Below are positions 5,940 through 51,087 of a DNA stretch of 64,000 nt, piece after piece. A program made the translations under genes and the position numbers. Within the stretch, counting starts at the first letter, position 1; each line of letters opens with the position of its first letter. The notes below the pieces were generated by a model. It worked only from the letters and a program-made list of their open reading frames with translations. It was not told where the DNA came from and did no database searches. This stretch comes from Candidatus Oxydemutator sp. (GTDB taxonomy: Bacteria; Pseudomonadota; Gammaproteobacteria; Poriferisulfidales; Oxydemutatoraceae). The DNA lies in NCBI GenBank assembly GCA_965203445.1, contig OZ241883.1, positions 64,001-128,000 on the forward strand, in the 5' to 3' direction.

Positions 5940-7646
<1,707 letters not shown>

Positions 7647-7668
7647 GGCGGGTGACGCGCAGCGCCGA

Positions 7669-8901
7669 TCAAGGACTGTGATGCGCGTAAATTGTCAATA
7701 TCAGCTCGGAATCGTCTATCAACCGATATTGTGGCCTGCGCCCGCTGAGCCGCTCGCTCTCCTCCATGATGATGGGCACCCCTTCTCCGCGGCGTTCCAG
7801 ATAGTAGCGACGCAGCACGCGGTCATGGTCTATCGCCACGCGGCAGCGACTCAACAGGCTGGTCAACAGCTCGTTCCTCGTGGCTTGGCGCAGATGGATA
7901 TTGTCGACGGAAATGGTGTTTGGCGGCGCGCCCGGGGAGAATATTTCCAGGTGGTCGTCGAACATGAAAAAGCGTATCTTCGAGCCGTGAACGGAGTAAT
8001 CCCGATGCGCCACCGCGTTGACTATCGCCTCGAAGACGACGCGGTCGGAATACTGGGGCGTCTCCTCGCGGTAAGGCTTTTTCACGGCGCCGATGAGCTG
8101 ATTCCTCGCAAGGAAGCCCATCGCCTCGTCAATCTGTTTGTTCAAAGGCCCGGTAATCTGGTGTGCGTCAATCTGGCGATGAGAATCTCTCCTCGTTCCC
8201 CTGTAGCGCACCGCCTCGATAAAGGCGTTCGGCAGAAACTTTTCGGGTTGCTCGGCACACATCAACACCCCGCCGACGGAGGCATGCAGCCGCCCTTGGT
8301 CCTCCACCAGTAAACGGCACTTTTTCAGGAGATCCTCCGCGGCACCCGCGGAGCGCGCCACCAGCGGACGCCATAACTCCTCTGCCAAATCGGCCGCGGA
8401 CGATTCCGGCACGGACTGCTCGTCAAACCGGATGAGCCGCGCCTGGCTACGCTGTTGCATCAGGCGCGCCAGAATATCGGGAGACATCTTGCGCTTGCTG
8501 CTCCCCTGCCTCTCAAAATACCCGTGCGGACTGCTGTGCACCCACAGGCTTCGAGGAACGTGTACAAACAGAACGGGGCGCTCTTCACCGTCCAAACCGG
8601 GGAGATAATCCTTGCGAGTATGGACGTTGATCCTTGGTTCTATAGTGTCCTTGCATAACTCTACTACCCTGCTTTCGATGGACTCGATCTGCTCCGCTGA
8701 GAGCCCTGTAACCTCCCGATTTTTGTTCACCCCGAATACTATGGTGCCCCCGTTGGAATTGGCGAAAGCAGCTATTTCATCGGCCAAACCATGCCAGTCT
8801 TCCTTGCTTGGTCTCCTGGCGACAGTACCATTCTTGAACTCAAGAGTAGAGTCTTCCCCCAAACTCAGCCTCTTTCTGATATCTCCAATAATCTCGAACA
8901 T
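7669..8901 (-). CDS. Schlafen/AlbA_2 domain + HATPase_c_4 (RecG-C-like) protein, copy 1
   Basis: GEDSTLEFK...EIAAFANSNGGTIVFGV; EAIVNAVAHRDYS; IFSPG; RNELL; ERRGEGVP; visibly lower GC than flanks. Confidence 0.82.
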   Translation of the reverse strand: MFEIIGDIRKRLSLGEDSTLEFKNGTVARRPSKEDWHGLADEIAAFANSNGGTIVFGVNKNREVTGLSAEQIESIESRVVELCKDTIEPRINVHTRKDYLPGLDGEERPVLFVHVPRSLWVHSSPHGYFERQGSSKRKMSPDILARLMQQRSQARLIRFDEQSVPESSAADLAEELWRPLVARSAGAAEDLLKKCRLLVEDQGRLHASVGGVLMCAEQPEKFLPNAFIEAVRYRGTRRDSHRQIDAHQITGPLNKQIDEAMGFLARNQLIGAVKKPYREETPQYSDRVVFEAIVNAVAHRDYSVHGSKIRFFMFDDHLEIFSPGAPPNTISVDNIHLRQATRNELLTSLLSRCRVAIDHDRVLRRYYLERRGEGVPIIMEESERLSGRRPQYRLIDDSELILTIYAHHSP

Positions 8902-8903
8902 GT

Positions 8904-11633
8904 TTATTTCTCATCAATATGTATTTTCCGATAACGCTTCTCAAAGGCCTCTTTACCGCCCTCCATAATATCGCATACTTTTTTCCTGACGTTCCTGTCT
9001 TGCAGGCCACTGCAACATCCCATATGGGTTTCCCCATTCTTTGGTTCCAAAGCAACTACCAGTTCCGCGTCGCCGTTGACCACGATGTTGGCGTTGTGGG
9101 TGACCACGATGACTTGTCTGCGTGTTTTTATTTGCCGCAACTGTTGCACGACCAACCCGTACACCAACTCATTGTCAAGATCATCTTCGGGCTGATCAAG
9201 CAACAGGGGGCCTTCGCCATGAGAGAGCAGAAAAGCCAATAAAGCAGCGTTTTTCTGCCCTGGTGATCCTTCAGCGATGTTTCTTTTGTCAGGACCAAAG
9301 GTGACTTCGAGCGCATCCTCAGGGAACCAGCACTGCAATCTGTCCAATTGTTCTGGTGCCAGTCTTTGCAAGTGTGCCCTGAAACGCTTACCGGCCACGT
9401 ATCCCTCATTTCTCAAAATAGCATGTACCTCTTTTTTCAACCGGCTTATTTTTTGTTCCATGTTGTCGTCCGGCGCGGTTATTATCCTTACCAAGCCTCC
9501 GATGTCCTGTAAAAACGTCTTATCATCACATTGCAGCAGTTCTCTGATCGCTTGTTCCACCTCCGCGTCCGGAGCCGCCATCTCCCGCACCTCCATTTGC
9601 ACGTGCTGATTCTCAGACAAAACGTCTTTTACAAAACTGCTCCTTTTCCGTGTCAAACGACGACGATGAGTTAACATTTTTTCCATGCATTTATCCAGGC
9701 CCTTTTGCACGGAATCCGAACCTTTCAGCCTTGCAATTTCCGTTAAACGTTCTTCCAACTTCCTCCTGTTTCCCACTAGTACACTATACCGAGCAGGATC
9801 GATACCCCTCTCTCGCAGTTCTTCTTTCTTTTCTTTATAACGGACTATATCTTGTTCCATTCTCATCATCCAGGGCGCATTCTTTTTCGTCTGTTCCCAC
9901 CTTGACAAAGCTTTCCGCGCTTCTTCTCTGGCAAGACCCAGCTTCTCTTTCACGCTTGACCAACAGTGATTGATCTCCCGTAACGCCTGCATACAGGCGG
10001 CTTCCGTCTCATCCTGCGGATCGAACAGGTCTTCATTGATCTCGACGGGCCCCACTTCGCCAATATTCTTCTGGATCCCGGCTGCCATCTCTTCCCATTC
10101 TCTCTGCAAAGTCTGCGTCTCTTCCACCTGATCTCTGCGACGCTGGTACAGTCTCAAAAGCTCGGAATAATCAGACTTCTCTATCTGTCTTAAATGCCGT
10201 CGGGTCTCATCCAGTTCTCCTCGCAACCGAGTTTCCTGACTCAACTCCTCGTCAATTCGCCGTTTTTCTCTGGACAATTCACAGTATTTTCTCTCAAGCG
10301 CGGCTTTCTCTTCTTGCCACGCCTTACTATCCATGTCAGACGAATTATCAATAATTCCCAACAATCCTTGCGGGTCACCGGCAAGAGTATATATTTGCTT
10401 TTGGCTGAATATGCTGACGGGAAACAAACCAGACACCTCTCCTTCATAAGGCTGCCATTCACCCTGCTCTTGTTTCTCAGCGTACGGAACATCTTCTTCT
10501 GAGGACCAGCATAAGCGGAAGCGTTCCTCCCCCTTGCGATACACCAATTTAATATCTGTTTTTTCGGTTAACACGCCGTCATCTCCACGCCCCCCGTAAA
10601 TACGGCTATATCTCTCTATATCACCGCGCAAAGTTTCGGGAACATCGCCATCTTTCTGCATAACCAAGCGCATGAATTCGATCAGGGTTGATTTGCCGCT
10701 ACCGCGACCGCCGATGACGGCGTTCAGAAATGGATTCCACTGACATTCAAAAGAACTACTTCTGCCAATGTATTTCGATTTATTCACGCGTAGAGATTCA
10801 ATCACGTATCCCGCACGTTTATTGGGATTTTCATTAGTGCCGTCGCTCCGTTGCACGGACGTTGGGTTTCCATCCAGTAACGCAAGCCGTATTCCCTCCA
10901 GAGTCGGCTCATCCATCTTAATCCAGGTGTAATGGCTACCAGGAAAAGAGCCGCCGGTTGTGGAACTCTCCCGGTGGTGGCTATCTGATCCCAATACTTC
11001 AGTCCAGCGAACCTTTTCACCCTGATACAACCCGGGCTTCGAATAGTTTGGGTCTTTCAATTCGATAGCGATTATATTTTCGTTGCGCAGTACTTCTCTA
11101 AGAGTGCTGCCACGGTTACGCAATTCCTCAAGTAAGCCCTTTGGTCCATCCGCATGTGCTGGGATAGCAATACCATTTGCTTCCTTAATGGCATCAACGA
11201 CTTCATTGATAGGCTTCCTCGTTTCAGTCCCACTTTCCCCTCGTCTGTTCGGGTAGTACTCAACGGCACCTAATAAGCGAGCAATGTCACTTGTCTTTGT
11301 TTCTTTGTCAAAAATCGCCAATACGTGAACTCCCCCATGAACCGAAATCTCAACACCTGGAAACAAATGCAACGGACGGTACCCATCTGGTTCTTCCGTC
11401 TCTAATGCATGCAAAGCATCTTGCAGTTTGTCTATCCATTCACCACTGTCATGATCAGTCACAGCCACACAATCAATGTCCGCCCGCATGTAATCCAGTA
11501 ACCAGTCGCGCGGAGCAATCATCCTCGTTTCAGCTTGCCGCGGCCCCTTCCCGTAATCCGGCGAGGCCGGCGTGTGGGTATGAAAATCAAACTGCCACCA
11601 ACGGGCGCCGGACCAATTCCAATCGGTGCTCAT
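8904..11633 (-). CDS. PHP-domain + ABC/SMC-type ATPase (Ppl / TrlF family), putative anti-phage protein
   Basis: PHP: DFHTHTPAS.D, AVTDHD, GVEI...GVHVLAIF, IPAHAD, GSDSHH; ATPase: GGRGSGKST, coiled coil, GSPGQK, LLLDQPEDDLD, VVTHN; lower GC. Confidence 0.85.
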   Translation of the reverse strand: MSTDWNWSGARWWQFDFHTHTPASPDYGKGPRQAETRMIAPRDWLLDYMRADIDCVAVTDHDSGEWIDKLQDALHALETEEPDGYRPLHLFPGVEISVHGGVHVLAIFDKETKTSDIARLLGAVEYYPNRRGESGTETRKPINEVVDAIKEANGIAIPAHADGPKGLLEELRNRGSTLREVLRNENIIAIELKDPNYSKPGLYQGEKVRWTEVLGSDSHHRESSTTGGSFPGSHYTWIKMDEPTLEGIRLALLDGNPTSVQRSDGTNENPNKRAGYVIESLRVNKSKYIGRSSSFECQWNPFLNAVIGGRGSGKSTLIEFMRLVMQKDGDVPETLRGDIERYSRIYGGRGDDGVLTEKTDIKLVYRKGEERFRLCWSSEEDVPYAEKQEQGEWQPYEGEVSGLFPVSIFSQKQIYTLAGDPQGLLGIIDNSSDMDSKAWQEEKAALERKYCELSREKRRIDEELSQETRLRGELDETRRHLRQIEKSDYSELLRLYQRRRDQVEETQTLQREWEEMAAGIQKNIGEVGPVEINEDLFDPQDETEAACMQALREINHCWSSVKEKLGLAREEARKALSRWEQTKKNAPWMMRMEQDIVRYKEKKEELRERGIDPARYSVLVGNRRKLEERLTEIARLKGSDSVQKGLDKCMEKMLTHRRRLTRKRSSFVKDVLSENQHVQMEVREMAAPDAEVEQAIRELLQCDDKTFLQDIGGLVRIITAPDDNMEQKISRLKKEVHAILRNEGYVAGKRFRAHLQRLAPEQLDRLQCWFPEDALEVTFGPDKRNIAEGSPGQKNAALLAFLLSHGEGPLLLDQPEDDLDNELVYGLVVQQLRQIKTRRQVIVVTHNANIVVNGDAELVVALEPKNGETHMGCCSGLQDRNVRKKVCDIMEGGKEAFEKRYRKIHIDEK

Positions 11634-11659
11634 GCTTCCAATTCTACACTGCTCGACTG

Positions 11660-13087
11660 CTATTGCGGCCGGTTTGGGCCGCACGAACGCACACCATTCG
11701 CAGACACGGGACTGTTATGAGCGCCGGCCTTGGCCGTCCTTGCCCTCGTATCCAGATCGGTGAAGAGATCGTCCGGCAGTTTTTCGCCGGTTTGCGGGTG
11801 GCGCAACGTGCGCTTGAGGACGAAGTCGAACAGCAGCGGGTTGTAGCCGTAAATCTCGTCGAGCCATTGCTGCTCGTCGTCGGTGATCATCGCGTGCGCG
11901 GCAAGCGCCTTGGTCGGGTTGAAAAACGCAATCGCCGGAACCGGATAATCGCTGCCGTTCAGCATCCGTCGGTGCAGCGCGCCCACCGGGCGCGTCCCTT
12001 CGATCACTCGCACCATCAGTTTGCGCGAGTCGCCGGACAACAGGCCGCCCATCACCATGACCGAGATCTCGCCGAACAGCAGGCCTTCGTATTCCGGCAT
12101 CCCCATCAGCTCGATGAAATCGTTGAAATACGGCTCCCCGGTATCCGGGTTTTCGCCGCGACGGGCGCCGTGCAACGCGACCGCGGTCACGCCGCAATCG
12201 AGCGCCTTGCGCAGGCTGCGCGGATCGCCCAGGCGCTGGTAGCTTCCATCCGGCGTCCGCAGGACGTACTCGTGTCCGGTGTGCACCAGCAACGCGACGC
12301 CGTTTTCGGCCAGCGCGCGGTAGTTGTGCGCGGAAACTTTCTCGAGGTCCATGCCCATCGAGGGCGGCAGCCATTTGAGATAGCGCACGCCGAGCGCGGC
12401 GAGACGCTCGATGCGGGGCTGAAAATCCTTGCGGTACGGGTGCACCGACGCCACCGGCACGACGCGCACGCGGTTGCTGCTCTTGTCGTCAAGGGCAGGC
12501 GCGGCCGCCTGCTCCAGCGCGCGGTTCATCCGCGCCGCCAACCCGATCACGTAGTCGTCGGGCACGTACAGGTCGGTGTATTCCGGCAACGCGCGGCCTT
12601 GCTCGTCGTGAAAATAGTCGAGCGCGTAGAGATAGAAACGATGCTCGACGGCGCCCGCAAAATACTTGCGCTGCACGTCCTGAAAATGCAGCAGCAGGCG
12701 CAGAAGCCGGTCTTCGTACTGCTGGTCCAGGCGCTCGAAATCATCCACGCCGGAAGCGCTCATGAAAACCCGCGCCTTCAGCCACGACACCGGGCGCAGC
12801 AGACTGTTCATGTCGGGATGGAGATAGGCATCGCGGCCGGCCGCGGACGTGCCGCGCGCGATCGCGTGCAGGTGGTGGTCCGCCAGCACCAGAGTTCCAG
12901 CGTCGGCGCCCGCGCCCGCGTCGTCGAAAGCAAACGCCTCCGCCAACAGCCTCTTCGCGCCGGCGCCGACGTTCGCCTCCATCTGCGACGGCTCGCCGCG
13001 AAAATCCCCGCCTATGGACGAAAACGAACACCCGGCCAAACACCCGACGCCCGCCAACACAACCGCAAACCGAATGGATTTATTCAT
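11660..13087 (-). CDS. Amidohydrolase-family (TIM barrel metallo-hydrolase) lipoprotein
   Basis: Lipobox LAGC; DHHLH, LKWLP, VHTGHE, ALHGA, GSDYP metal-ligand motifs. Confidence 0.75.
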   Translation of the reverse strand: MNKSIRFAVVLAGVGCLAGCSFSSIGGDFRGEPSQMEANVGAGAKRLLAEAFAFDDAGAGADAGTLVLADHHLHAIARGTSAAGRDAYLHPDMNSLLRPVSWLKARVFMSASGVDDFERLDQQYEDRLLRLLLHFQDVQRKYFAGAVEHRFYLYALDYFHDEQGRALPEYTDLYVPDDYVIGLAARMNRALEQAAAPALDDKSSNRVRVVPVASVHPYRKDFQPRIERLAALGVRYLKWLPPSMGMDLEKVSAHNYRALAENGVALLVHTGHEYVLRTPDGSYQRLGDPRSLRKALDCGVTAVALHGARRGENPDTGEPYFNDFIELMGMPEYEGLLFGEISVMVMGGLLSGDSRKLMVRVIEGTRPVGALHRRMLNGSDYPVPAIAFFNPTKALAAHAMITDDEQQWLDEIYGYNPLLFDFVLKRTLRHPQTGEKLPDDLFTDLDTRARTAKAGAHNSPVSANGVRSCGPNRPQ

Positions 13088-14114
13088 TTTCTTTTACCAC
13101 GTCGCAATGCAACCCTGTCCCTCCGGGAGAGGGAGAATAATTCGTCCGTTCGCGTGGCGTGTTTCTTTCCCGGAAGACGCCGTCCGCGTAACCCTGCACG
13201 CTTTTGTCGTAGCGCGCCCTCTCCAGGCGCTTTTCGGCCAGACAGCAATAATACTCATCAATCTCTACGCCGACGTAGCGGCGGCCCAATTTGGCCGCGA
13301 CCACCGAAGTCGTGCCGGAACCTGCGAACGGGTCGAACACGACGTCGTTCGGTTTCGAGCTTGCCAGAATAATTTTGGCGAGGAGTTTTTCCGGCTTCTG
13401 CGTCGGGTGGTCGGTATTCTCCGGCATGGACCAGAACGGAACCGTGACGTCGGTCCAGACGTTGGAGGGATGGGTGGCGCGGTATTTCCCGCCGCCTTCG
13501 TCCCGCCAGTCCTTCGGCCTGCCGTTCGCGTCCCTGTACGGTGCCACGACCTTGCGCCTTATTTTTACCGCCTCGACGTCAAAATAATAGTCTTTCGACA
13601 GGGTGCAAAACCAGATGTCCTCGGAGCAATTTTTCCAGTTGGATTTCGCGCCGCACCCTTTCTCCCTCTCAAAAGTAATCCGGTTTTGAATCTGAAAATA
13701 GCGGCGCGCGACGTTGCATATCGCGGCGCCCGAGCGCCAGTCGCCGCACAGATAGATCGAGGCGCGCGGCTGCATCAGGCGAACGATTTTTTGCATCCAG
13801 GAATCCAGCCATTCTTCGTATCGCTCCCATTCCATGGCCTGGAACGAGGCCGCGCCAAACGTCTTGGTCAGATTGTACGGGGGATCAACAAAAACAAGAT
13901 CGGCAAACGCATCCGGCAGACGTTCCAATGCCTCGAAAATATCCTGATGTATCGTCTTGTTTTCGATCACGTCCAAAGACGCCGGCCCTTTCAGCGTGAT
14001 CAAGCGCTTTTTGAGCAGTGCTACGTCGGTATCGTCCAACGTCAGCGTGCGGTTGCCCGGCGCCCGTTGTTTGTCCGCCGATTGTTTCGTCAGTTGTTCC
14101 GTCAGTGGTTTCAT
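13080..14114 (-). CDS. Site-specific DNA methyltransferase (N4-C/N6-A, beta class), orphan
   Basis: DPPY precedes HPTQKP and DPFAGSGTT; GVEID. Confidence 0.9.
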   Translation of the reverse strand: MKPLTEQLTKQSADKQRAPGNRTLTLDDTDVALLKKRLITLKGPASLDVIENKTIHQDIFEALERLPDAFADLVFVDPPYNLTKTFGAASFQAMEWERYEEWLDSWMQKIVRLMQPRASIYLCGDWRSGAAICNVARRYFQIQNRITFEREKGCGAKSNWKNCSEDIWFCTLSKDYYFDVEAVKIRRKVVAPYRDANGRPKDWRDEGGGKYRATHPSNVWTDVTVPFWSMPENTDHPTQKPEKLLAKIILASSKPNDVVFDPFAGSGTTSVVAAKLGRRYVGVEIDEYYCCLAEKRLERARYDKSVQGYADGVFRERNTPRERTNYSPSPGGTGLHCDVVKENE

Positions 14115-14138
14115 CAAAAGTCTGGCGCCCGCGCCTGA

Positions 14139-14214
14139 TGGTGCCGGGGAGAGGAATCGAACCCCCAACCTTCGCATTACAAATGCGCTGCACTACCGAT
14201 TGTGCTACCCCGGC
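14139..14214 (-). tRNA. tRNA-Thr(TGT)
   Basis: GCCGGGGTAGCACAATCGGTAGTGCAGCGCATTTGTAATGCGAAGGTTGGGGGTTCGATTCCTCTCCCCGGCACCA; 76 nt, anticodon loop TTTGTAA, encoded CCA. Confidence 0.95.
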
Positions 14215-14251
14215 CAGGCCGCGACGATGCGCCGGGACGCATTATAGAGGG

Positions 14252-14923
14252 TCAAACCGGGTTGCGCAGATAGACCGGCAGCGCGCGCGCGGCTTCCACG
14301 GTCTCGCAGCCGTTGCCGGCCAGCGCGAGTTTGAGCATGGCCGCGGCCGCGGGCCGCAGGTCGCCGTCGCAGACGGTCGGCGCGGCGCCTAATGCCTCGA
14401 TCATCTCGTCGCGGTACAGGTGCCACGCCGAACCGGCGCCGACGCCGCGAAAGTCGCGCGCCGGCGGCAACTTTGCGGGTGCCGCCAGCCCCTCTGCCGC
14501 GGCCGGGGCGGCCAAGCCGTCGTCGTCTTTGACGAAGCGCCCGTAGTACACCTCGCCCATGCGCGCGTCCATGGCCGCGAACACCTCGGCGGCGGCGTGG
14601 CGCTCGATGGCCACCTGCGCGAGCGCCTGCAAATCGGATACCGGCACCACCGGAAGACCACGCGCGTAAGCCACGCTTTGGGCGACCGCGGCCGCGACGC
14701 GCACGCCGGTAAAGGCGCCCGGCCCCCTGCCGAAAACCAGCGCGTCGAGTTGGCCGAGACCGACGCCGGCCTCATGAAACAACGCCTCGCACATCTCGAA
14801 GATCAGCACGTTGTGGCGGCGCGGCGCAATCGCAAAACGCCGGTAGATCCTGCCGTCGCAACCGAGCGCCGCCGAACACGCCTCGGTGGCGGTGTCGACC
14901 GCAAGCACGTGAAATCGTCCCAC
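14252..14923 (-). CDS. tsaB: tRNA threonylcarbamoyladenosine biosynthesis protein TsaB
   Basis: LAVDTATEACSAAL, GRGPGAFTGVR, MDARMGEVY, PVYLR. Confidence 0.93.
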   Translation of the reverse strand: MGRFHVLAVDTATEACSAALGCDGRIYRRFAIAPRRHNVLIFEMCEALFHEAGVGLGQLDALVFGRGPGAFTGVRVAAAVAQSVAYARGLPVVPVSDLQALAQVAIERHAAAEVFAAMDARMGEVYYGRFVKDDDGLAAPAAAEGLAAPAKLPPARDFRGVGAGSAWHLYRDEMIEALGAAPTVCDGDLRPAAAAMLKLALAGNGCETVEAARALPVYLRNPV

Positions 14924-14945: not shown

Positions 14946-16889
14946 CTACTGGAAGTAGCCCCGCAGCGGCGCCAGTTCCCGAAACACTTTCATCGGCGGC
15001 AGGCTGTCGAGAAAAATCCGTCCGTACGGTCTGGTGGTCACGCGGCAATCGCCGATGACGATGACGCCCGAATCGGCGGCGTCGCGGATCAGGCGACCGA
15101 CGCCCTGGCGCAACGCGAGCACCGCCTCCGGCAGCGTGTTCTCGACGAAGTAGTTGCGTTCCTGCTCGCGCGCACGCGCGATCTTTGCCTGCACCACCGG
15201 GTCGCCCGGCGATGCGAACGGCAGGCGGTCTATGACCACGCAACTCAATGCCGCGCCCTTGACGTCCACGCCCTCCCAGAAACTGTTGGTGCCGAGCAGC
15301 AGCCGGCCGCGCCCGTCGCCAAAGCGCCTGATCAGTTCCATCTTCGGCGCGCTCCCCTGCACCAGCAGTTGCCACGCGGTGTTTTCGTCCAGCCATTCGG
15401 CGGCGCGCCTCAGCGCGTGGTGACTGGTGAACAGCAGGAAAGCGCGCCCGTTCGACGCCGCCAGCAGCGGTTCGACGGCGCCCAACAGTTTGTCCGTATA
15501 GCGCTCGTTGTTCGGTTCGGGCAGGCCCCGCGGCAAATAAAGCGCGGCCTGCTCGCGGTAGTCGAACGGGCTGTCGAAGGCCGCCTGGGCGCCGTCGGCG
15601 GCCAGCCCCAACTCGGACCGAAAATGCGTGAAATCGTCGCCGACGGCGATGGTCGCCGACGTATAGATCCAGTTCGCGTCGTACAGGCGGGTCTTTTCGG
15701 ACAACAACGCGGACACGTCGCACGGGGAAAGATACAGTTGAAACGAGCGCCGCACGTGCGAAAACCACGCGACGAGACCGTCGTCGCCGACGTCGCCGAG
15801 CGCGCGCTCGAAATCATCGTCGAGCGCGGCGACGCGCTGCCACAGGCTCGCCCAATGCTCCGACAACGCGCGCAACGGCTTCAAATGCGACACCAACGCC
15901 TGGTGCGCGTCGGCGAGCGCCCGGCGCCTCTCGTCGAACTTCTTCACTGCCTTCAGCACGGCGACGGGGCCGCGCTCCGGCAGCCTTGCGAACAGATGCG
16001 TGAACGCCCCGAGCGCGTCGCGGCATTGCCCGAGGCACTTTTGCCGGCGCGCGTCGTCGCGCGTGTCGTCCCGTTTTTCCGCCTTCGCCGCGATCTCGCA
16101 ATCGCGCAGCAGATCGTGCCACCGGCGGCTCGTCAGGCGTTCGGTAAAATTGCGCTCGGCGACGCCCTTGAATTGGTGCGCCTCGTCCACGACGATGACG
16201 TCGGTACCCGGCAGCAGTTCCATGAACCCCTCCTCCTTCAACGCCATGTCGGCCATCAGCAGGTGGTGGTTGACGACGACGAGATCGGCGCGCGCGGCCC
16301 TCTGCCGCGCCTTGGCGACGAAGCACGGACGGTAGTGCGGGCAGTTCGCGCCGAGGCAACTGTCCGGCGTCGACAGCACCAGCGGCCACGTCGGATCGTC
16401 TTCGGCGACCTCCTTCAGCGTATGAACGTCGCCGTCGTCGGTCTCGCGCGACCAGCGCCGGATGAGCTCGACGCTGCCGGCGTCCGCCTCCAACGTCGGC
16501 GTTTGCGTCAGGTACTCGAGGCGCTCGAGACACAGGTAATTGGCGCGCCCCTTCAACAGCGCGGTCTTTATCGTGGCGCCAAGCGCCTTACGCACGACCG
16601 GCAAATCCTTGTAATAGATCTGATCCTGCAAGTGGCGCGTCGCGGTCGAGATGATCGTGCGGCGCCCGGACAACACCGCCGGCACCAGATAGGCGAAGGT
16701 CTTGCCGATTCCGGTGCCGGCCTCGACCACGAGGTCGTCGCGGCCCGCGACGGCGGCGGCGACCCGCGCCGTCATCTCCAGTTGCTGGCGGCGCTCGCCG
16801 TAGCCTTCGATCAGACGCGCGAACGGCCCGCGCACGGACAGCAGACCGGCGCAGCGGCGCGCGAAATCCTTCGTCGGGGCGTGGTTCAT
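14946..16889 (-). CDS. DinG/YoaA family ATP-dependent DNA helicase (Fe-S)
   Basis: EAGTGIGKT, LKGRANYLC, C-x4-C-x5-C cluster, VDEAH, SATI, FWEGVDV, QGVGRLIR. Confidence 0.93.
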   Translation of the reverse strand: MNHAPTKDFARRCAGLLSVRGPFARLIEGYGERRQQLEMTARVAAAVAGRDDLVVEAGTGIGKTFAYLVPAVLSGRRTIISTATRHLQDQIYYKDLPVVRKALGATIKTALLKGRANYLCLERLEYLTQTPTLEADAGSVELIRRWSRETDDGDVHTLKEVAEDDPTWPLVLSTPDSCLGANCPHYRPCFVAKARQRAARADLVVVNHHLLMADMALKEEGFMELLPGTDVIVVDEAHQFKGVAERNFTERLTSRRWHDLLRDCEIAAKAEKRDDTRDDARRQKCLGQCRDALGAFTHLFARLPERGPVAVLKAVKKFDERRRALADAHQALVSHLKPLRALSEHWASLWQRVAALDDDFERALGDVGDDGLVAWFSHVRRSFQLYLSPCDVSALLSEKTRLYDANWIYTSATIAVGDDFTHFRSELGLAADGAQAAFDSPFDYREQAALYLPRGLPEPNNERYTDKLLGAVEPLLAASNGRAFLLFTSHHALRRAAEWLDENTAWQLLVQGSAPKMELIRRFGDGRGRLLLGTNSFWEGVDVKGAALSCVVIDRLPFASPGDPVVQAKIARAREQERNYFVENTLPEAVLALRQGVGRLIRDAADSGVIVIGDCRVTTRPYGRIFLDSLPPMKVFRELAPLRGYFQ

Positions 16890-16912
16890 CGAATTTGGGC
16901 AACCCCCTGTTT

Positions 16913-17887
16913 TCATTGCGACCATTGCGATAGTTTTACCGGATGGATGTACAACGTGCCTTCAGGCCAGTTGGCCAACAACTTCCCGAGCTGCATCCCG
17001 TATTGTTCAGCAAACCGCCCCTGCTCTTCGCTTTCCCACATTGCCTTTCCCCACGATGAAATGTCTCCTTGCGTAATAATCTCTCCAGGTTCGGCGCACA
17101 TCATCAACGAGGTCGGCAACGCTATTTCCACAAATAAATTGCCCGAGGCGAAAATCCCGCAGTAGTGAGCGAATTGTCTTATGTGCTTCGAGGATACAAT
17201 GCAGATATCCGAATAACCACGAATAAAAGGCAAACGCGGGACATATGTGCGGTTGAGTCGTTTGAGGTACGCGACTAGAAACCTCGCTCCTAATAGACGG
17301 AGAGTTCTCCTAATATCGGTTATATCTCTCCACCCGAACGATTGAGTCAACCAATACATGAGAGGCCTGTTAAGGTAATAGGTTGGTATCGGTTTTATTG
17401 TCAATCCCAGATTCTCAAATCTTTTCAGGGTCTCATCATAAGTGGGAAGTAGATCTTCTACCTGAAAGTTATTGCTCCATGTGAGAACCCCCCGCGTGTG
17501 AGTCCAAAGGTCTGCTTGATGCAGAAGCCTAAATCCAGGAAGAAAAGACTTGGCTCTGTCACCACCCAATCCGAAATGCTCCATATAATTCCCTTCGTTG
17601 ATCATCGGATTCAACACCAGATCATCTGCGATGAACAGGTAATGCCGATGTTTCTCCGCAAAGTATTGATTGTATCCTTGAGCTATGTGTCCTTGAAAGG
17701 AATAAGAATCTTCATAAACGGGGATCACGTTCTCACCCCCCCCCCCCCCCCCCCCCCCTTCATGGAAAGGCATCAGGTGATAGACATGCGAAAACCTGCC
17801 GCGATACAGGTTCTCCAGCTTTTCCACGTTGGCGCTGTGGCGGTGGTTGTAAATGACAACCAGGCAGACGCTGCCGCTCATCTGCAT
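16913..17887 (-). CDS. Putative glycosyltransferase (DUF288/STELLO-like), copy B, with poly-G tract
   Basis: LVVIYNH...LENLY..RF, YLFIADDLVLN, GYSDI, FVEIALPT, HPVKLS; lower GC; ATG overlaps upstream TGA. Confidence 0.6.
   Translation of the reverse strand: MQMSGSVCLVVIYNHRHSANVEKLENLYRGRFSHVYHLMPFHEGGGGGGGGENVIPVYEDSYSFQGHIAQGYNQYFAEKHRHYLFIADDLVLNPMINEGNYMEHFGLGGDRAKSFLPGFRLLHQADLWTHTRGVLTWSNNFQVEDLLPTYDETLKRFENLGLTIKPIPTYYLNRPLMYWLTQSFGWRDITDIRRTLRLLGARFLVAYLKRLNRTYVPRLPFIRGYSDICIVSSKHIRQFAHYCGIFASGNLFVEIALPTSLMMCAEPGEIITQGDISSWGKAMWESEEQGRFAEQYGMQLGKLLANWPEGTLYIHPVKLSQWSQ
17736..17758 (-). repeat. 23-nt homopolymer (poly-G on the coding strand)
   Basis: C23 on + strand, currently in frame (encodes Gly8); the paralog has only 7 C at this site. 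Confidence 0.85.
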
Positions 17888-18153
17888 CACGTCCCCGCCC
17901 GCCCGGAAGGAAAGATGATCGTGCGGCGTCCGGACGACACCGCCGGCACCAGATAGGCGAAGGTCTTGCCGATTCCGGTGCCGGCCTCGACCACGAGGTC
18001 GTCGCGGCCCGCGACGGCGGCGGCGACCCGCGCCGTCATCTCCAGCTGCTGGCGGCGCTCGCCGTAGCCTTCGATCAGACGCGCGAACGGCCCGCGCACG
18101 GACAGCAGACCGGCGCAGCGGCGCGCGAAATCCTTCGTCGGGGCGTGGTTCAT
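17887..18153 (-). pseudogene. Truncated duplicate of the dinG 5' end fused to the last codons of ispF
   Basis: MNHAPTKDFARR...EAGTGIGKTFAYLVPAV.SGRRTII then FPSGRAGT*, the IspF C-terminus. Confidence 0.85.
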
Positions 18154-18176
18154 CGAATTTGGGCAACCCCCTGTTT

Positions 18177-19181
18177 TCATTGCGACCATTGCGATAGTTT
18201 TACCGGATGGATGTACAACGTGCCTTCAGGCCAGTTGGCCAACAACTTCCCGAGCTGCATCCCGTATTGTTCAGCAAGCCGTCTCTGCTCTTCGCTTTCC
18301 CACATTGCCTTTCCCCACGATGAAATGTCTCCTTGCGTAATAATCTCTCCAGGTTCGGCACACATCATCAACGAGGTCGGCAACGCTATTTCCACAAATA
18401 AATTGCCCGAGGCGAAAATCCCGCAGTAGTGAGCGAATTGCCTTATGTGCTTCGAGGATACGATGCAAATATCCGAATAACCAAAAACTAAAGGCACACG
18501 CGGGACAACATCCCGTGGTATTAAATACCAGGCTCGAAACTTCCTTATTAATCGCGCAATAACTTTGACCTTCCCCCTGAACGCTGATCCGCGCCACCCA
18601 CGTTCAACGTGTCCCAATGTTTTCCTAATATCGGTTATATTTTCCCGACCGAGCAACTCAATCCGCAAACGTGGCGCTATCGCGAAATAGGCCGGTATCG
18701 GTTTTATTGCCAACCCCAGATTCTCAAATCTTTTCAGGATCTTATCACGAGTGGGAAAGAGACCTTTCATCTGAAGCCCCTCGCCCCATCCAAAAGCCCT
18801 ATGCGTGTTACCCCAAGAGGCTGCTTCATGCAGAAACCCACATTCGGGAATAAAAGACTTGACTCTGCCACCGCCTAATCCGAAATACTCCGCATAATTC
18901 CCTTCGTTGATCATCGGATTCAACACCAGATCATCCGCGATGAACAGGTAATGCCGATGTTTCTCCGCAAAGTATTGACTGTATCCTTGAGCTATGTGTC
19001 CTTGAAAGTAACCAGAGCTTTCATAAACGGGAATCACGTTCTCACGCCCCCCCTGATAGAAAGGCATCAGGTGATAGATATGGGAAAACCTGCCGCGATA
19101 CAGGTTCTCCAGCTTTTCCACGTTGGCGATATAGCGGTGGTTGTAAATGACAACCAGGCAGACGCTGCCGTTCATCCGCAT
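18177..19181 (-). CDS. Putative glycosyltransferase (DUF288/STELLO-like), copy A
   Basis: Same motifs as copy B; ATG overlaps the ispF stop. Confidence 0.6.
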   Translation of the reverse strand: MRMNGSVCLVVIYNHRYIANVEKLENLYRGRFSHIYHLMPFYQGGRENVIPVYESSGYFQGHIAQGYSQYFAEKHRHYLFIADDLVLNPMINEGNYAEYFGLGGGRVKSFIPECGFLHEAASWGNTHRAFGWGEGLQMKGLFPTRDKILKRFENLGLAIKPIPAYFAIAPRLRIELLGRENITDIRKTLGHVERGWRGSAFRGKVKVIARLIRKFRAWYLIPRDVVPRVPLVFGYSDICIVSSKHIRQFAHYCGIFASGNLFVEIALPTSLMMCAEPGEIITQGDISSWGKAMWESEEQRRLAEQYGMQLGKLLANWPEGTLYIHPVKLSQWSQ

Positions 19182-19693
19182 CACGTCCCCGCCCGTCCGG
19201 AAGGAAAATCGGGCGCGCGAATCAGCGCGATGCTGTGCGCGGCGATGCCCTCGCCGCGACCGGCGAAGCCGAGTTTCTCGGTGGTCGTCGCCTTGATGCT
19301 GACGCAATTTTGCGCAAGCGCCAGATCCTCGGCCAGGTTCTTGCGCATTCCGGGGATATGCGGCTGCAACCTCGGTTCCTGCGCGATCAACGTCGAGTCG
19401 AGGTTGACGATTGCAAATCCGGCGTCTTCGAGCATCGCGTGCACTTTGCGCAGCAGCCAGCGGCTGTTGATCGCGCGGTAGGTCTCGTCTTCGTCCGGGA
19501 AATGCACGCCGACGTCGCCGAGCGCGGCGGCGCCCAGCAGCGCGTCGCACACCGAATGGATCAGCACGTCGCCGTCAGAATGCGCCTTCAGCCCGAAGGC
19601 AAACGGAATGCGCACGCCGCCGATGACGATGTGCCGGCCCTCGCCAAAGGCGTGCACGTCGTAGCCGTGCCCGATCCGCAACGTGTCGTTCAT
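19181..19693 (-). CDS. ispF: 2-C-methyl-D-erythritol 2,4-cyclodiphosphate synthase
   Basis: RIGHGYDVH, AHSDGDVLIH, KATTTEKLGF.GRGEGIAA. Confidence 0.96.
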   Translation of the reverse strand: MNDTLRIGHGYDVHAFGEGRHIVIGGVRIPFAFGLKAHSDGDVLIHSVCDALLGAAALGDVGVHFPDEDETYRAINSRWLLRKVHAMLEDAGFAIVNLDSTLIAQEPRLQPHIPGMRKNLAEDLALAQNCVSIKATTTEKLGFAGRGEGIAAHSIALIRAPDFPSGRAGT

Positions 19694-49565: not shown

Positions 49566-50831
49566 TCATGCCTGTTCCTGCAAGGATTGTGCCGCAAAGA
49601 TGGTCAGGCACAGCTCATCGCCATACATCCTGTAGACCGGCTTCCTGCCGCTCAGTTTTTCACTTTCGCGCAGAATAATGCCCACACCCTCGCCTCTGCG
49701 TTCCAGGAAATACCTTCTCCCTACGGTACCGCCGAGCCGTTCTTCTACGGCCAGCTCAGACAACAGCCGAGACAGTAGTTCATTACGAGTTGCCTGGTTG
49801 TCCACTAAAGCTTCAACCGTCATGGTATTTGCAAGGGCACCGGGGGAGTAGAGTTCCAGTCTGTCGGCGAACAGGAACAGGCGTATTTTTGAACCGTGTA
49901 TAGAGTAGTCTCTGTGCATGACGGCGTTCACCAGGGCTTCAAAAACGGCGCGCGCGCTGTACTGTGGCCGTTCCCGTCGCCCCACTTCCTTACGCGCGGA
50001 CTTCTGATTATGCTTCTCGACGAACTTACAGGAGTCCATGATCTGCTGGTCCAGCGGCCCCTTGAAATCCTGGGCGTCCAGTTGATAGTTGGCGTCTTTA
50101 TGCAGTCCTCTATAACGGACGGCACATACAAAACTGTTGTACAGATGCTCGTGAGACCGGTCGCTGCACATCAGCAACCCGGCCACGGAAGCCCGATAAA
50201 CACCATTGTCGTCAACCAGCAACCAGCGCTTCAGAAGCTGCTCAGTTTCTTGCTGCTCGGCGTCTTGCTGCTCAGTTTCCGCCCTGGTGATAAATCTTGC
50301 GAATAAATGTTTGCTTAGAGTCGCCTTGTCGGTAGAAGGCACAAACTGTTCATCAAACTTGATAGTCCTGGCTTGTGATCGGGCTTGCGATATCCTGGCC
50401 AGCTGCTCCGGTGTCATTTCGCGCTTGGCGTCTCCCTGCCGCAAATAGTACCCACCGACGCTTCGGTGCAGCCACAGACTCTTCTCGACGTCTATATAGA
50501 CCAGTCGCTTTTCTCGTCCCATTTCATCTGGCATAAGGACGCTGTCGACGAAAAAGTTGGTGATGGACGGCTCTATCGAGTCGTGACATATCTCACTGAT
50601 AAAGTGAATCAATAGCCTGGGGTCATCGCCGATTCCAAGAATATCTTTATCATCGGAAACGCCAAAGATGATCACGCCACCTTGATGATTTGCAAAAGCC
50701 GCAATTTCATCCGCAAGATCGCCTCTGCCCGGATCTTTTACTGTATTACCGGCAATTCGTACTTCCTTGAATTCCATCGCCGAGCTTTCGCCCGCGCCAA
50801 TTTTTTCCAGCAATTGAGCGGCACTAAACAT
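49566..50831 (-). CDS. Schlafen/AlbA_2 domain + HATPase_c_4 protein, copy 2
   Basis: GESSAMEFK...DEIAAFANHQGGVIIFGV; EALVNAVMHRDYS; ATRNELL; ERRGEGV; colinear with 7669..8901; lower GC. Confidence 0.82.
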   Translation of the reverse strand: MFSAAQLLEKIGAGESSAMEFKEVRIAGNTVKDPGRGDLADEIAAFANHQGGVIIFGVSDDKDILGIGDDPRLLIHFISEICHDSIEPSITNFFVDSVLMPDEMGREKRLVYIDVEKSLWLHRSVGGYYLRQGDAKREMTPEQLARISQARSQARTIKFDEQFVPSTDKATLSKHLFARFITRAETEQQDAEQQETEQLLKRWLLVDDNGVYRASVAGLLMCSDRSHEHLYNSFVCAVRYRGLHKDANYQLDAQDFKGPLDQQIMDSCKFVEKHNQKSARKEVGRRERPQYSARAVFEALVNAVMHRDYSIHGSKIRLFLFADRLELYSPGALANTMTVEALVDNQATRNELLSRLLSELAVEERLGGTVGRRYFLERRGEGVGIILRESEKLSGRKPVYRMYGDELCLTIFAAQSLQEQA

Positions 50832-51087
50832 TGGAATACTCCAGGTGGATGCGCCTGTAACGCTGCTCGAATGCTTTTTCTCCGCCTTCCAGAATATCGC
50901 ATATCGCTTGTCTGACCTGCTTATTCTGTATGCTGGCGGGTTCTTGTACTCGAGTTTGACCATCTTCTACTTTCAGGGGCAGGACCATCTCTGCATCGCC
51001 ATTTACCACAACGTTGGCGTTGTGTGTGACGACGATGACTTGTCGCTCGCTTTTGACGGCACGCAGCTCGTGGTCGCTCAGGTTCAT
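50824..51087 (-). pseudogene. 3' remnant of a Ppl/TrlF-type ATPase
   Basis: RQVIVVTHNANVVVNGDAEMV...ICDILEGGEKAFEQRYRRIH aligns with the C-terminus of 8904..11633; Walker A/B and PHP parts absent. Confidence 0.85.

Follow-up and report, generated by a model that had tools for sequence, protein, structure and literature searches.

A Ppl-family nuclease-ATPase gene and a Schlafen-GHKL ATPase gene form a recurrent, co-diverging pair: a candidate two-gene anti-phage operon

When a Ppl-type nuclease-ATPase gene and a Schlafen-type nuclease gene lie side by side in a bacterial genome, do they form one anti-phage system, or are they two defence genes that merely share an address? The question is raised by a 64,000-nucleotide stretch of the genome of Candidatus Oxydemutator sp. 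(assembly GCA_965203445.1, contig OZ241883.1, forward-strand positions 64,001 to 128,000), hereafter the window, which belongs to a single-contig genome (G000) of 2.38 Mb. On the minus strand of the window, a gene of the Ppl/TrlF family (8904..11633; protein P0001) encodes an N-terminal PHP phosphoesterase domain and a Rad50/SMC-like ATP-binding cassette (ABC) ATPase, and is followed by a gene (7669..8901; protein P0002, 410 aa) encoding a stand-alone Schlatpase, i.e., a Schlafen domain joined to a GHKL ATPase domain. The identities of the two proteins, their intact catalytic motifs, the tight junction between the genes, their linkage and their co-divergence are direct observations. On balance, we consider it probable that the two genes form an anti-phage operon that was acquired horizontally, in which Ppl would be responsible for DNA sensing and degradation and the Schlatpase would form an RNA-directed effector arm.

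The assignment of the first gene is based on its open reading frame (ORF) and on profile searches with PADLOC and NCBIfam. P0001 matched the PADLOC Ppl model (PDLC02208) over its full length (8e-151, residues 26-921) and the NCBIfam model NF045780 (TrlF_fam_ATP) with 577.6 bits at a cut-off of 350 (residues 26-922 on profile positions 2-944). The equivalog model NF042955 (Ppl_antiphage), which describes the validated Ppl, gave 577.3 bits (residues 26-921 on profile positions 1-882), and the best sampled relatives reached 605-634 bits. Since this score is well under the equivalog cut-off of 1000, P0001 is, to judge by its profile matches, a member of the Ppl family and not an orthologue of the validated E. 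coli Ppl. NF042955 scores over its full length solely on the subclade that holds P0001.

The PHP motifs of P0001 align with those of the family (FHTHTP at residue 34, VTDHD at 75, AIPAHAD at 173 and GSDSHH at 232), and their HxH, DH, H and DxH residues are those which we take, from the PHP fold, to bind metal. The same domain gave weak matches to the CehA/McbA metallohydrolase (4e-7) and to RNase RNM, and no Pfam PHP match was obtained at E <= 0.01. The ATPase part carries a Walker A motif (GGRGSGKS, 325), a signature (SPGQK, 807), a Walker B motif (LLLDQPE, 827) and an H-loop (VTHNAN, 860); residues G325, R327, G328, G330, K331, D830, Q831, P832, E833 and H863 are invariant in 29 Ppl sequences. 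The initial annotation of this locus, made from the sequence without database searches, had recognised a Ppl-like PHP and ABC ATPase protein, in agreement with these results, and had taken the DQ of the Walker B motif for a variant; it is instead a family trait, as DQPE is present in 37 of 37 aligned members. A sequence search for the solved structure of a close relative of P0001 found none.

The second protein consists of an SLFN/AlbA_2 nuclease domain (approximately residues 1-155), a middle subdomain and a C-terminal HATPase_c_4 GHKL domain, as delimited by Pfam, AlphaFold2 (AF2) and Foldseek. P0002 matched Pfam SLFN_AlbA_2 with 73.3 bits (3.1e-20, cut-off 25.3, residues 16-140) and HATPase_c_4 (PF13749) with 63.3 bits (2.1e-17, cut-off 26, residues 306-398). 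Its motif E16-x4-E21-F-K23 aligns with SLFN12 and SLFN13, which agrees with the AlbA_2-HATPase protein with an intact E-x4-EFK motif reported initially. Among 27 aligned homologues of P0002 that are partners of Ppl genes, K23 is invariant, E16 and E21 are conserved in at least 90%, and 25 of the 27 carry the full motif E-x4-(E/D)-x-K; the GHKL residues E291, N295, H299, R300, D301, P323, G324 and N328 are invariant in all of them.

The AF2 model of P0002, built on the alignment of the 27 partners, reached a predicted local distance difference test (pLDDT) value of 85.5. Foldseek matched the whole length of the model to 3LMM (DIP2311, uncharacterised), its N-terminal part to the nuclease domains of SLFN5, SLFN11, SLFN12, SLFN13, SLFN14 and SAMD9, and its C-terminal part to the GHKL domains of histidine kinases and PDK (HK853, PDK, CpxA). 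No C-terminal helix-turn-helix (HTH) was found by Pfam or in the AF2 model, which ends in the last GHKL beta-strands; the final residue, 410, is 12 past the HATPase_c_4 match.

The two genes are separated by 2 nt ('AC', 8902..8903, minus strand), read directly between the Ppl stop codon (TAA, 8906-8904) and the Schlatpase ATG (8901), and a purine-rich GAGAAA lies just 5' of this ATG. Such a layout fits co-transcription and coupled translation. The Ppl ORF extends over 8904..11684 and yields 926 aa from a GTG at 11684 or 909 aa from the ATG at 11633; the latter fits the N-terminus of the family and is located 26 nt past the stop of the upstream ORF. The GC content is 0.49-0.55 over positions 8001-12000 compared with 0.61-0.72 in most of the window, and the insert is flanked by the core genes glnS, tsaB and a DinG-like helicase gene. 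The lower-GC pair with a 2-nt spacing described in the initial annotation was thus correctly read. A scan for promoters and terminators over 7300-14600 gave counts no different from those of shuffled sequence (4 against 3.4 and 9 against 8.5).

The frequency of the arrangement was measured in 401 genomes of the same phylum, drawn evenly and searched with the TrlF model, which gave 39 genes above the cut-off in 33 genomes. A homologue of P0002 is located directly downstream and on the same strand in 27 of these 39 Ppl/TrlF genes, three of them imperfect: at L036 the partner is cut to 280 aa, at L045 Ppl is in pieces, and at L018 the partner starts 134 nt downstream. The remaining 12 have other neighbours, e.g., cas3/cas5, hsdS/hsdR, RhuM, AIPR or an integrase, and ten shorter PHP-less relatives that fell below the TrlF cut-off in the same genomes have no partner. 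Because just 237 AlbA_2 matches were found across the 401 genomes (in 135 of them; the tally includes one unpublished genome, G383), we estimate the chance of such adjacency to be far below 1% per gene. The linkage of a downstream AlbA_2-HATPase gene to TrlF/Ppl genes, proposed from its recurrence in the window, is therefore real, well above the chance estimate, and stronger than could be known from this stretch of DNA.

As a separate observation, a group of PHP-less proteins of about 630-690 aa (L047, L048 and L050-L056) matched the ATPase part of the TrlF model alone, with 290-320 bits, which is below the cut-off; none of them has a Schlatpase neighbour.

The phylogenetic analysis of Ppl showed two clades separated with a support of 100. 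In the clade containing the window protein the partner is present in 25 of 29 rows, and P0001 groups within a subclade of 10 in which every member is paired, whereas the other clade consists of eight solo proteins of about 1000 aa each and has the partner in 0 of 8. The partner starts between -26 and +134 nt relative to the Ppl stop across 29 pair loci, with start codons chosen by the analyst. Over 25 full pairs, the pairwise identities of Ppl and of its partner are correlated with r = 0.97, a value reached by none of 2000 Mantel permutations, and of 22 internal splits 15 are common to both trees, compared with 0.14 on average and never more than 2 when the labels were shuffled 1000 times. This co-divergence does not reflect the species tree only, because five genomes carry two pairs each from different clades and keep their partners unmixed, the identity between the two pairs being only 20-26% for Ppl and 25-34% for the partner.

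The genes around the pair differ from locus to locus. Housekeeping neighbours include proS, an ABC transporter, response regulators and hisB, and defence neighbours include hsdR, hsdS, GmrSD, AAA_21-DUF4276, HEPN-DUF499, BrxL, SIR2, TIR and Macro. As the neighbours vary around a constant pair, Ppl and the Schlatpase are thus the smallest constant unit. Constant nesting of the pair in a restriction-modification (R-M) operon was considered and rejected as a rule, as most flanks are unrelated to R-M; such nesting is seen for the window pair (methylase two genes upstream), for the third pair of the same genome (methylase directly upstream), on IncC plasmids and at L017, L031, L076 and L079.

The distribution beyond the phylum was analysed with the 80 closest relatives of P0002 (41-57% identity) on contigs representing one genome per species. 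Ppl is located directly upstream of 17 of them, at full length in 14, cut by a contig end in one and as a relic in two (L087 and L116). The Ppl-linked loci belong to Spirochaetota, Thermodesulfobacteriota, Myxococcota, Verrucomicrobiota, Chloroflexota, Poribacteria, Actinomycetota, Latescibacterota, Acidobacteriota, Bacillota and Pseudomonadota and to one archaeon (Methanospirillum). All 17 Ppl-linked proteins in the loci of other phyla have the Schlafen motif, as do 49 of the 55 unlinked ones. Close to the window genome the distribution is patchy, with a family match in none of three genomes of the same genus and in four of 40 related genomes overall.

The pair is also found on plasmids. A Burkholderia thailandensis plasmid carries TrlF and, 1 nt behind it, a gene annotated as 'ATP-binding protein' whose product shares 48.7% identity with P0002. 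On IncC plasmids (L060, pNDM102337, 134572-145342) the order is hsdR, TrlF, 'RNA-binding domain protein' (the Schlatpase), hsdS, AAA ATPase and hsdM, i.e., the pair sits within a type I R-M operon. In a Pseudomonas syringae plasmid (L061), the unannotated 2.8 kb upstream of the Schlatpase encodes Ppl in two frames, owing either to a sequencing error or to decay into a frameshifted pseudogene. Among viral contigs (IMG/VR), 51 distant Schlatpase relatives (22-38% identity) were detected, none with a Ppl-type match within 4 kb. Tandem Schlatpase genes were observed in L088 and L119; in the latter, the extra Schlatpase gene lies upstream of a Ppl-Schlatpase pair, and a SIR2_2 gene lies downstream.

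Both components of the pair have been published, and the statements on published work given here refer to the accessible parts of the sources cited. The E. coli Ppl, whose discovery is credited to Gao et al. 2020 and whose mechanism is credited to Xu et al. 2026 in PMC12904381 and PMC13648713, is described there as a phage-protective 3'-5' single-stranded DNA (ssDNA) exonuclease that is inhibited by nucleoside triphosphates (NTPs). According to the same two sources, its activation follows the depletion of NTPs by phage, which lifts the inhibition at the PHP and NTPase domains, and the appearance of 3'-OH ends produced by phage homing endonucleases; Ppl is toxic when RecBCD is inactive (PMC12904381, PMC13648713). 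P0001 shares with this system (Gao_Ppl) the full-length architecture of a PHP domain and a Rad50-like ABC ATPase together with the metal-binding and ATPase motifs. However, Ppl is described as stand-alone, whereas P0001 and 25 of the 29 sampled members of its clade have a fixed downstream partner.

Prokaryotic Schlafens are presented by Perez Taboada et al. (PMC13056530) as tRNA-cleaving nucleases (tRNases) fused to sensors; the E-x4-(E/D)-x-K catalytic motif was defined there, and pSlfn-HisKinase (pSlfn1) is the commonest architecture, with 34% of 5,930. Of the seven Schlafen systems tested in E. coli in that work, the DUF262 and Ig-like fusions alone defended, with no His-kinase construct among them (PMC13056530). 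The 'Schlatpase' supradomain was named in bioRxiv 10.64898/2026.05.29.728809, and ATP-driven oligomerisation and tRNA cleavage were shown for RzAgo and RorSlfn5 (PMC13056530, bioRxiv 10.64898/2026.05.29.728809). P0002 has the same composition as the His-kinase Schlafens (pSlfn1/Schlatpase), namely SLFN_AlbA_2 with its motif followed by the PF13749 GHKL domain. In the characterised Schlafens a sensor (Ig-like, DUF262, pAgo core or Csx15) is part of the polypeptide itself, whereas P0002 has no further domain and no HTH; unlike them, it would have its candidate sensor in the separately encoded Ppl.

The combination of an ABC/Rad50-like ATPase with a separate nuclease is likewise found in PARIS (AriA/AriB), Gabija (GajA/GajB), Septu (PtuA/PtuB) and Lamassu, and a likeness in the mode of working is proposed; the nuclease of PARIS is a tRNase (PMC12839542, PMC13648713). 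These systems, however, use a TOPRIM, HNH or Cap4 nuclease, while the window pair uses a Schlafen-GHKL protein and an ATPase with a PHP nuclease of its own. In PADLOC, P0001 gave weak matches to AriA, GajA, PtuA and LmuB that were confined to the ATPase motifs (1.6e-8 to 5e-3), and P0002 matched no effector model of PARIS, Gabija, Septu or Lamassu. By these comparisons, the pair is a member of none of the four. Schlafens embedded in bacteriophage exclusion (BREX) or R-M loci represent the same type of gene inside another defence operon, which was also seen here between hsdM and hsdS/hsdR, but the BREX and R-M reports concern mostly the form bearing a winged HTH (wHTH), whereas here Ppl is the host gene and both genes co-diverge.

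As to whether the pairing is already known, Ppl is not mentioned in the main texts, as far as accessible, of PMC13056530, bioRxiv 10.64898/2026.05.29.728809 and PMC12839542. Literature searches for Ppl with Schlafen, or for Schlafen with PHP and ABC ATPase, returned no relevant paper, the primary Ppl paper being outside their coverage. In the searched files of the supplement of PMC13056530, Gao_Ppl__PplA is recorded, uncommented, within +/-10 kb of at least 38 Schlafen entries. None of the models of PADLOC-DB 2.0.0 names a Schlatpase as part of a Ppl system; the comparison of both proteins with the PADLOC hidden Markov models, which had been suggested initially, identified the first gene as Ppl and placed the Schlatpase in no Ppl-system model. 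As far as searched, and apart from that one supplementary table, the pairing appears to be undescribed as a unit, as the initial annotation had supposed; the searched papers, in their accessible parts, treat Ppl as a single gene.

For the two-gene operon favoured here, we infer the biochemical steps, and any contact between Ppl and the Schlatpase, from homology and from the arrangement of the genes. The two genes would be transcribed, and probably translated, together and inherited as a unit. By homology with the E. coli Ppl, the Rad50-like ATPase and the PHP domain would bind NTPs as well as DNA ends with a 3'-OH; once phage infection had depleted nucleotides and produced such ends, Ppl would degrade DNA in the 3'-5' direction. 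By homology with prokaryotic Schlafens, binding of ATP to the GHKL domain would drive oligomerisation of the Schlatpase into an active tRNA-cutting nuclease. The Schlatpase may thus act as a second, RNA-directed effector arm, causing translation shut-off or abortive infection, and may be licensed by the Ppl ATPase, by that ATPase when bound to DNA, or by the nucleotide signal to which Ppl responds. The initial annotation had proposed a sensor-ATPase coupled to a Schlafen effector: the linkage of the two genes stands, but this division of labour is too simple, as Ppl is itself a nuclease effector that acts alone in E. coli according to the accessible literature.

The most serious alternative is that two autonomous single-gene systems travel together, their proximity being the outcome of co-mobilisation and of layered 'backup' defence with no mechanistic dependency. 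We regard this as possible, though rather doubtful, and several observations weigh in its favour and against a dedicated two-gene system. The E. coli Ppl is a single-gene anti-phage system that defends alone (PMC12904381, PMC13648713). In the clade of the window protein, 4 of 29 Ppl genes have no partner, and a solo TrlF that is 40.6% identical to P0001, and belongs to the same subclade by its NF042955 score, occurs on Enterobacterial conjugative plasmids and E. coli chromosomes. It was matched by 502 plasmid records, mostly near-identical copies; its context, seen in one record each, is next to a type II R-M system on a plasmid and next to a prophage on an E. coli chromosome.

The Schlatpase is not dedicated to Ppl either. 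Of the 80 loci, 8 are too short upstream to score, and in 55 of the 72 informative ones (at least 2.7 kb of upstream DNA) there is no Ppl; just 17 of the 72 close relatives have it upstream. The non-Ppl loci adjoin hsdM, hsdS or hsdR genes (7), SNF2 helicases (4), AAA_15/AAA_21 ABC ATPases (7 of 55), ResIII, DUF1156 or DuOB genes, or plain housekeeping genes. In the Schlatpase tree, for which midpoint rooting only was used, all the deepest branches are Ppl-linked, and the 'Ppl-linked' label changes 9-10 times, at least seven of these changes being forced. The relic-bearing Schlatpase of the window belongs to a clade of eight of which the other seven have no Ppl. At three relic loci (the second copy in the window, L087 and L116) the Schlatpase is intact and Ppl is lost, which indicates that, in these three loci at least, the Schlatpase remained after Ppl had gone. 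Stand-alone Schlatpases have also been reported in type I R-M operons (bioRxiv 10.64898/2026.05.29.728809), and the BREX survey (Nucleic Acids Research 2026, PMC12839542) describes Schlafen-His-kinase-wHTH genes as widespread 'backup suicidal effectors' in other systems. Nor were clean fusions of the two proteins found: in the protein collection, 4 of 15 long matches join both parts and were rejected as such, since they look like products of frameshift or deletion (in P0009 the Ppl tail is frameshifted, P0006 and P0015 are each missing entire lobes, and P0007 is chimeric and includes an Eco57I-like part).

Against mere neighbourhood, the fixed order and the junction of -26 to +134 nt would not be expected, nor would the correlation of 0.97 and the shared splits; the pair is constant while every flank changes, and the partner is kept even by a clade whose PHP motifs are degenerate. 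The finding that the Schlafens defending in E. coli are DUF262 and Ig-like fusions fits a need for a partner and is no proof of it (PMC13056530). The two-gene operon remains our preferred reading.

A stronger form of that reading concerns which part of Ppl is the counterpart of the Schlatpase. In the clade of L002, L033 and L038, the PHP HxH and DxH are gone, and the ATPase motifs and the partner are kept. The constant counterpart of the Schlatpase is pointed to as the Ppl ATPase rather than the PHP domain, because the PHP-degenerate clade retains the partner, other ABC ATPases adjoin Schlatpases, and the catalytic sites of the partner are conserved. In human cells, DNA damage or ssDNA triggers tRNA cleavage by SLFN11. 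This offers a possible functional analogy, from a DNA-end or ssDNA signal to a Schlafen tRNase, in which homology extends to the SLFN domain alone. The DNA-binding and helicase parts of SLFN11 belong to one polypeptide with its nuclease and have no relationship to Ppl. It is tentatively suggested that Ppl is two-component in most lineages, with the DNA-end-bound ATPase licensing the Schlafen-GHKL tRNase under nucleotide depletion, in an SLFN11-like logic. If this were true, the Schlatpase would be the sole effector in the PHP-decayed clade, and it would be explained why sensor-less Schlafens have not yet been shown to defend alone, as their sensors would be borrowed from Ppl, ABC ATPases, R-M or BREX.

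It is less likely, and in our view improbable, that the Schlatpase is no effector but a regulator or safety catch of Ppl expression or activity, acting, e.g., against self-damage at replication termini. Relatives are recorded as 'transcriptional regulator' or 'RNA-binding domain-containing protein', an HTH is reported in more than 90% of the C-terminal tails of Schlatpases (bioRxiv 10.64898/2026.05.29.728809), and a brake would be useful, since Ppl is toxic upon RecBCD inactivation (PMC12904381, PMC13648713). The catalytic motif is also altered in 2 of the 27 partners, with G for E16 in the third pair of the genome and Q for E21 in L031, exceptions that weigh against a tRNase effector as well. 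However, P0002 itself ends with its GHKL domain and has no HTH by AF2 or Pfam, its nuclease motif and GHKL residues are conserved in the manner of an enzyme, and many Ppl genes have no Schlatpase. Moreover, the Schlatpase gene lies downstream of Ppl, whereas most defence regulators, to our knowledge, lie upstream.

Finally, a housekeeping role in DNA repair or RNA metabolism, to which the repair functions of Rad50/SbcC-like ATPases with nucleases and the position of the window pair among glnS, tsaB and the DinG-like helicase gene could point, is very hard to reconcile with a low-GC insert of patchy distribution that occurs on plasmids and within R-M or BREX-type loci, is present in several diverged copies plus a relic in one 2.38-Mb genome and belongs to two families with experimentally shown anti-phage members, as described in the accessible literature.

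The Schlatpase is the most abundant and yet the least understood class of bacterial Schlafens, and Ppl has been studied as a one-gene system. If the pair acts together, defence catalogues under-call a widespread two-gene system, seen here in at least 12 phyla, one archaeon and IncC plasmids, sensor-less Schlatpases gain a testable activation mechanism, and a DNA-end sensor joined to a tRNase would provide a tractable bacterial model for the switching of Schlafen nucleases by DNA signals. If the two genes are independent, the locus would still be a clear case of stacked defence genes with a datable relic.

Such a relic is present in the second copy within the window. About 42 kb from the first pair, where the initial annotation had reported the same pair in diverged form, an intact Schlatpase paralogue of 421 aa with the motif GESSAMEFK is encoded at 49566..50831 on the minus strand (HATPase_c_4 4.8e-17, SLFN_AlbA_2 1.7e-16; 47% identity to P0002 across 414 aa by tblastn). 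The second Schlatpase was thus confirmed, but its Ppl is only an 87-codon C-terminal relic (50824..51087, minus strand), found by tblastn, BLASTP and NCBIfam. This ORF corresponds to the last 78 or so Ppl residues, from the H-loop to the C-terminus, with 54% identity and 85% positives to residues 847-924 of P0001 and no gaps or stops, and it covers positions 868-944 only of the TrlF model. Its overlap with the Schlatpase ATG is 8 nt long, and it starts 28 nt past the stop of an rluB-like gene.

A third Ppl-Schlatpase pair, which is complete, is located outside the window (G000:C1:405594-409405, locus L002) and shares with the window pair only about 20% identity in Ppl and 27% in the partner. 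Its Ppl is the one already mentioned without the PHP HxH and DxH, and the start of this Ppl gene is overlapped by 4 nt by an ORF directly upstream, of 490 aa, which encodes an N6_N4 methylase domain; with this ORF the locus spans 405594-410900. Five more AlbA_2 paralogues of this genome have no Ppl within 6 kb. In total, 8 AlbA_2/Schlatpase-like paralogues were counted by tblastn and 7 by Pfam, which is many for 2.38 Mb, given a mean of about 0.6 per genome in the phylum sample.

Upstream of the window pair, and on the same strand, lie two further genes, so that the methylase gene, a 475-aa ORF, Ppl and the Schlatpase are arranged head to tail. The ORF (11660..13087, minus strand), whose stop is 26 nt before the Ppl ATG, was assigned to no family: no match was found in Pfam at 1e-4, nor in NCBIfam or PADLOC, and only a weak Pfam Amidohydro_2 match (E 0.0086) and Atlas features like those of Amidohydro_2 clusters (0.96) were obtained. 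The start of this ORF is overlapped by an N6/N4 DNA methyltransferase gene of type II (13080..14177, minus strand; N6_N4_Mtase 3e-42 in Pfam, MTase_II 4.3e-66 in PADLOC). Both genes are given as context; within this insert they could make up an accessory or R-M-like module.

The DinG-like helicase gene (14946-16925, minus strand) matched the PADLOC model 'typeIV_DinG (CAS-IV-A associated)' with 1.6e-133 and most likely belongs to the housekeeping DinG family. Between it and ispF, a further stretch of low GC content (0.50-0.53) extends over 16913-19550 on the minus strand; its two ORFs (417 and 457 aa) matched nothing in Pfam, NCBIfam or PADLOC, and it may be an additional small island. Over the final kilobase of the window (63001-64000), the GC content falls to 0.54 and the GC skew is positive.

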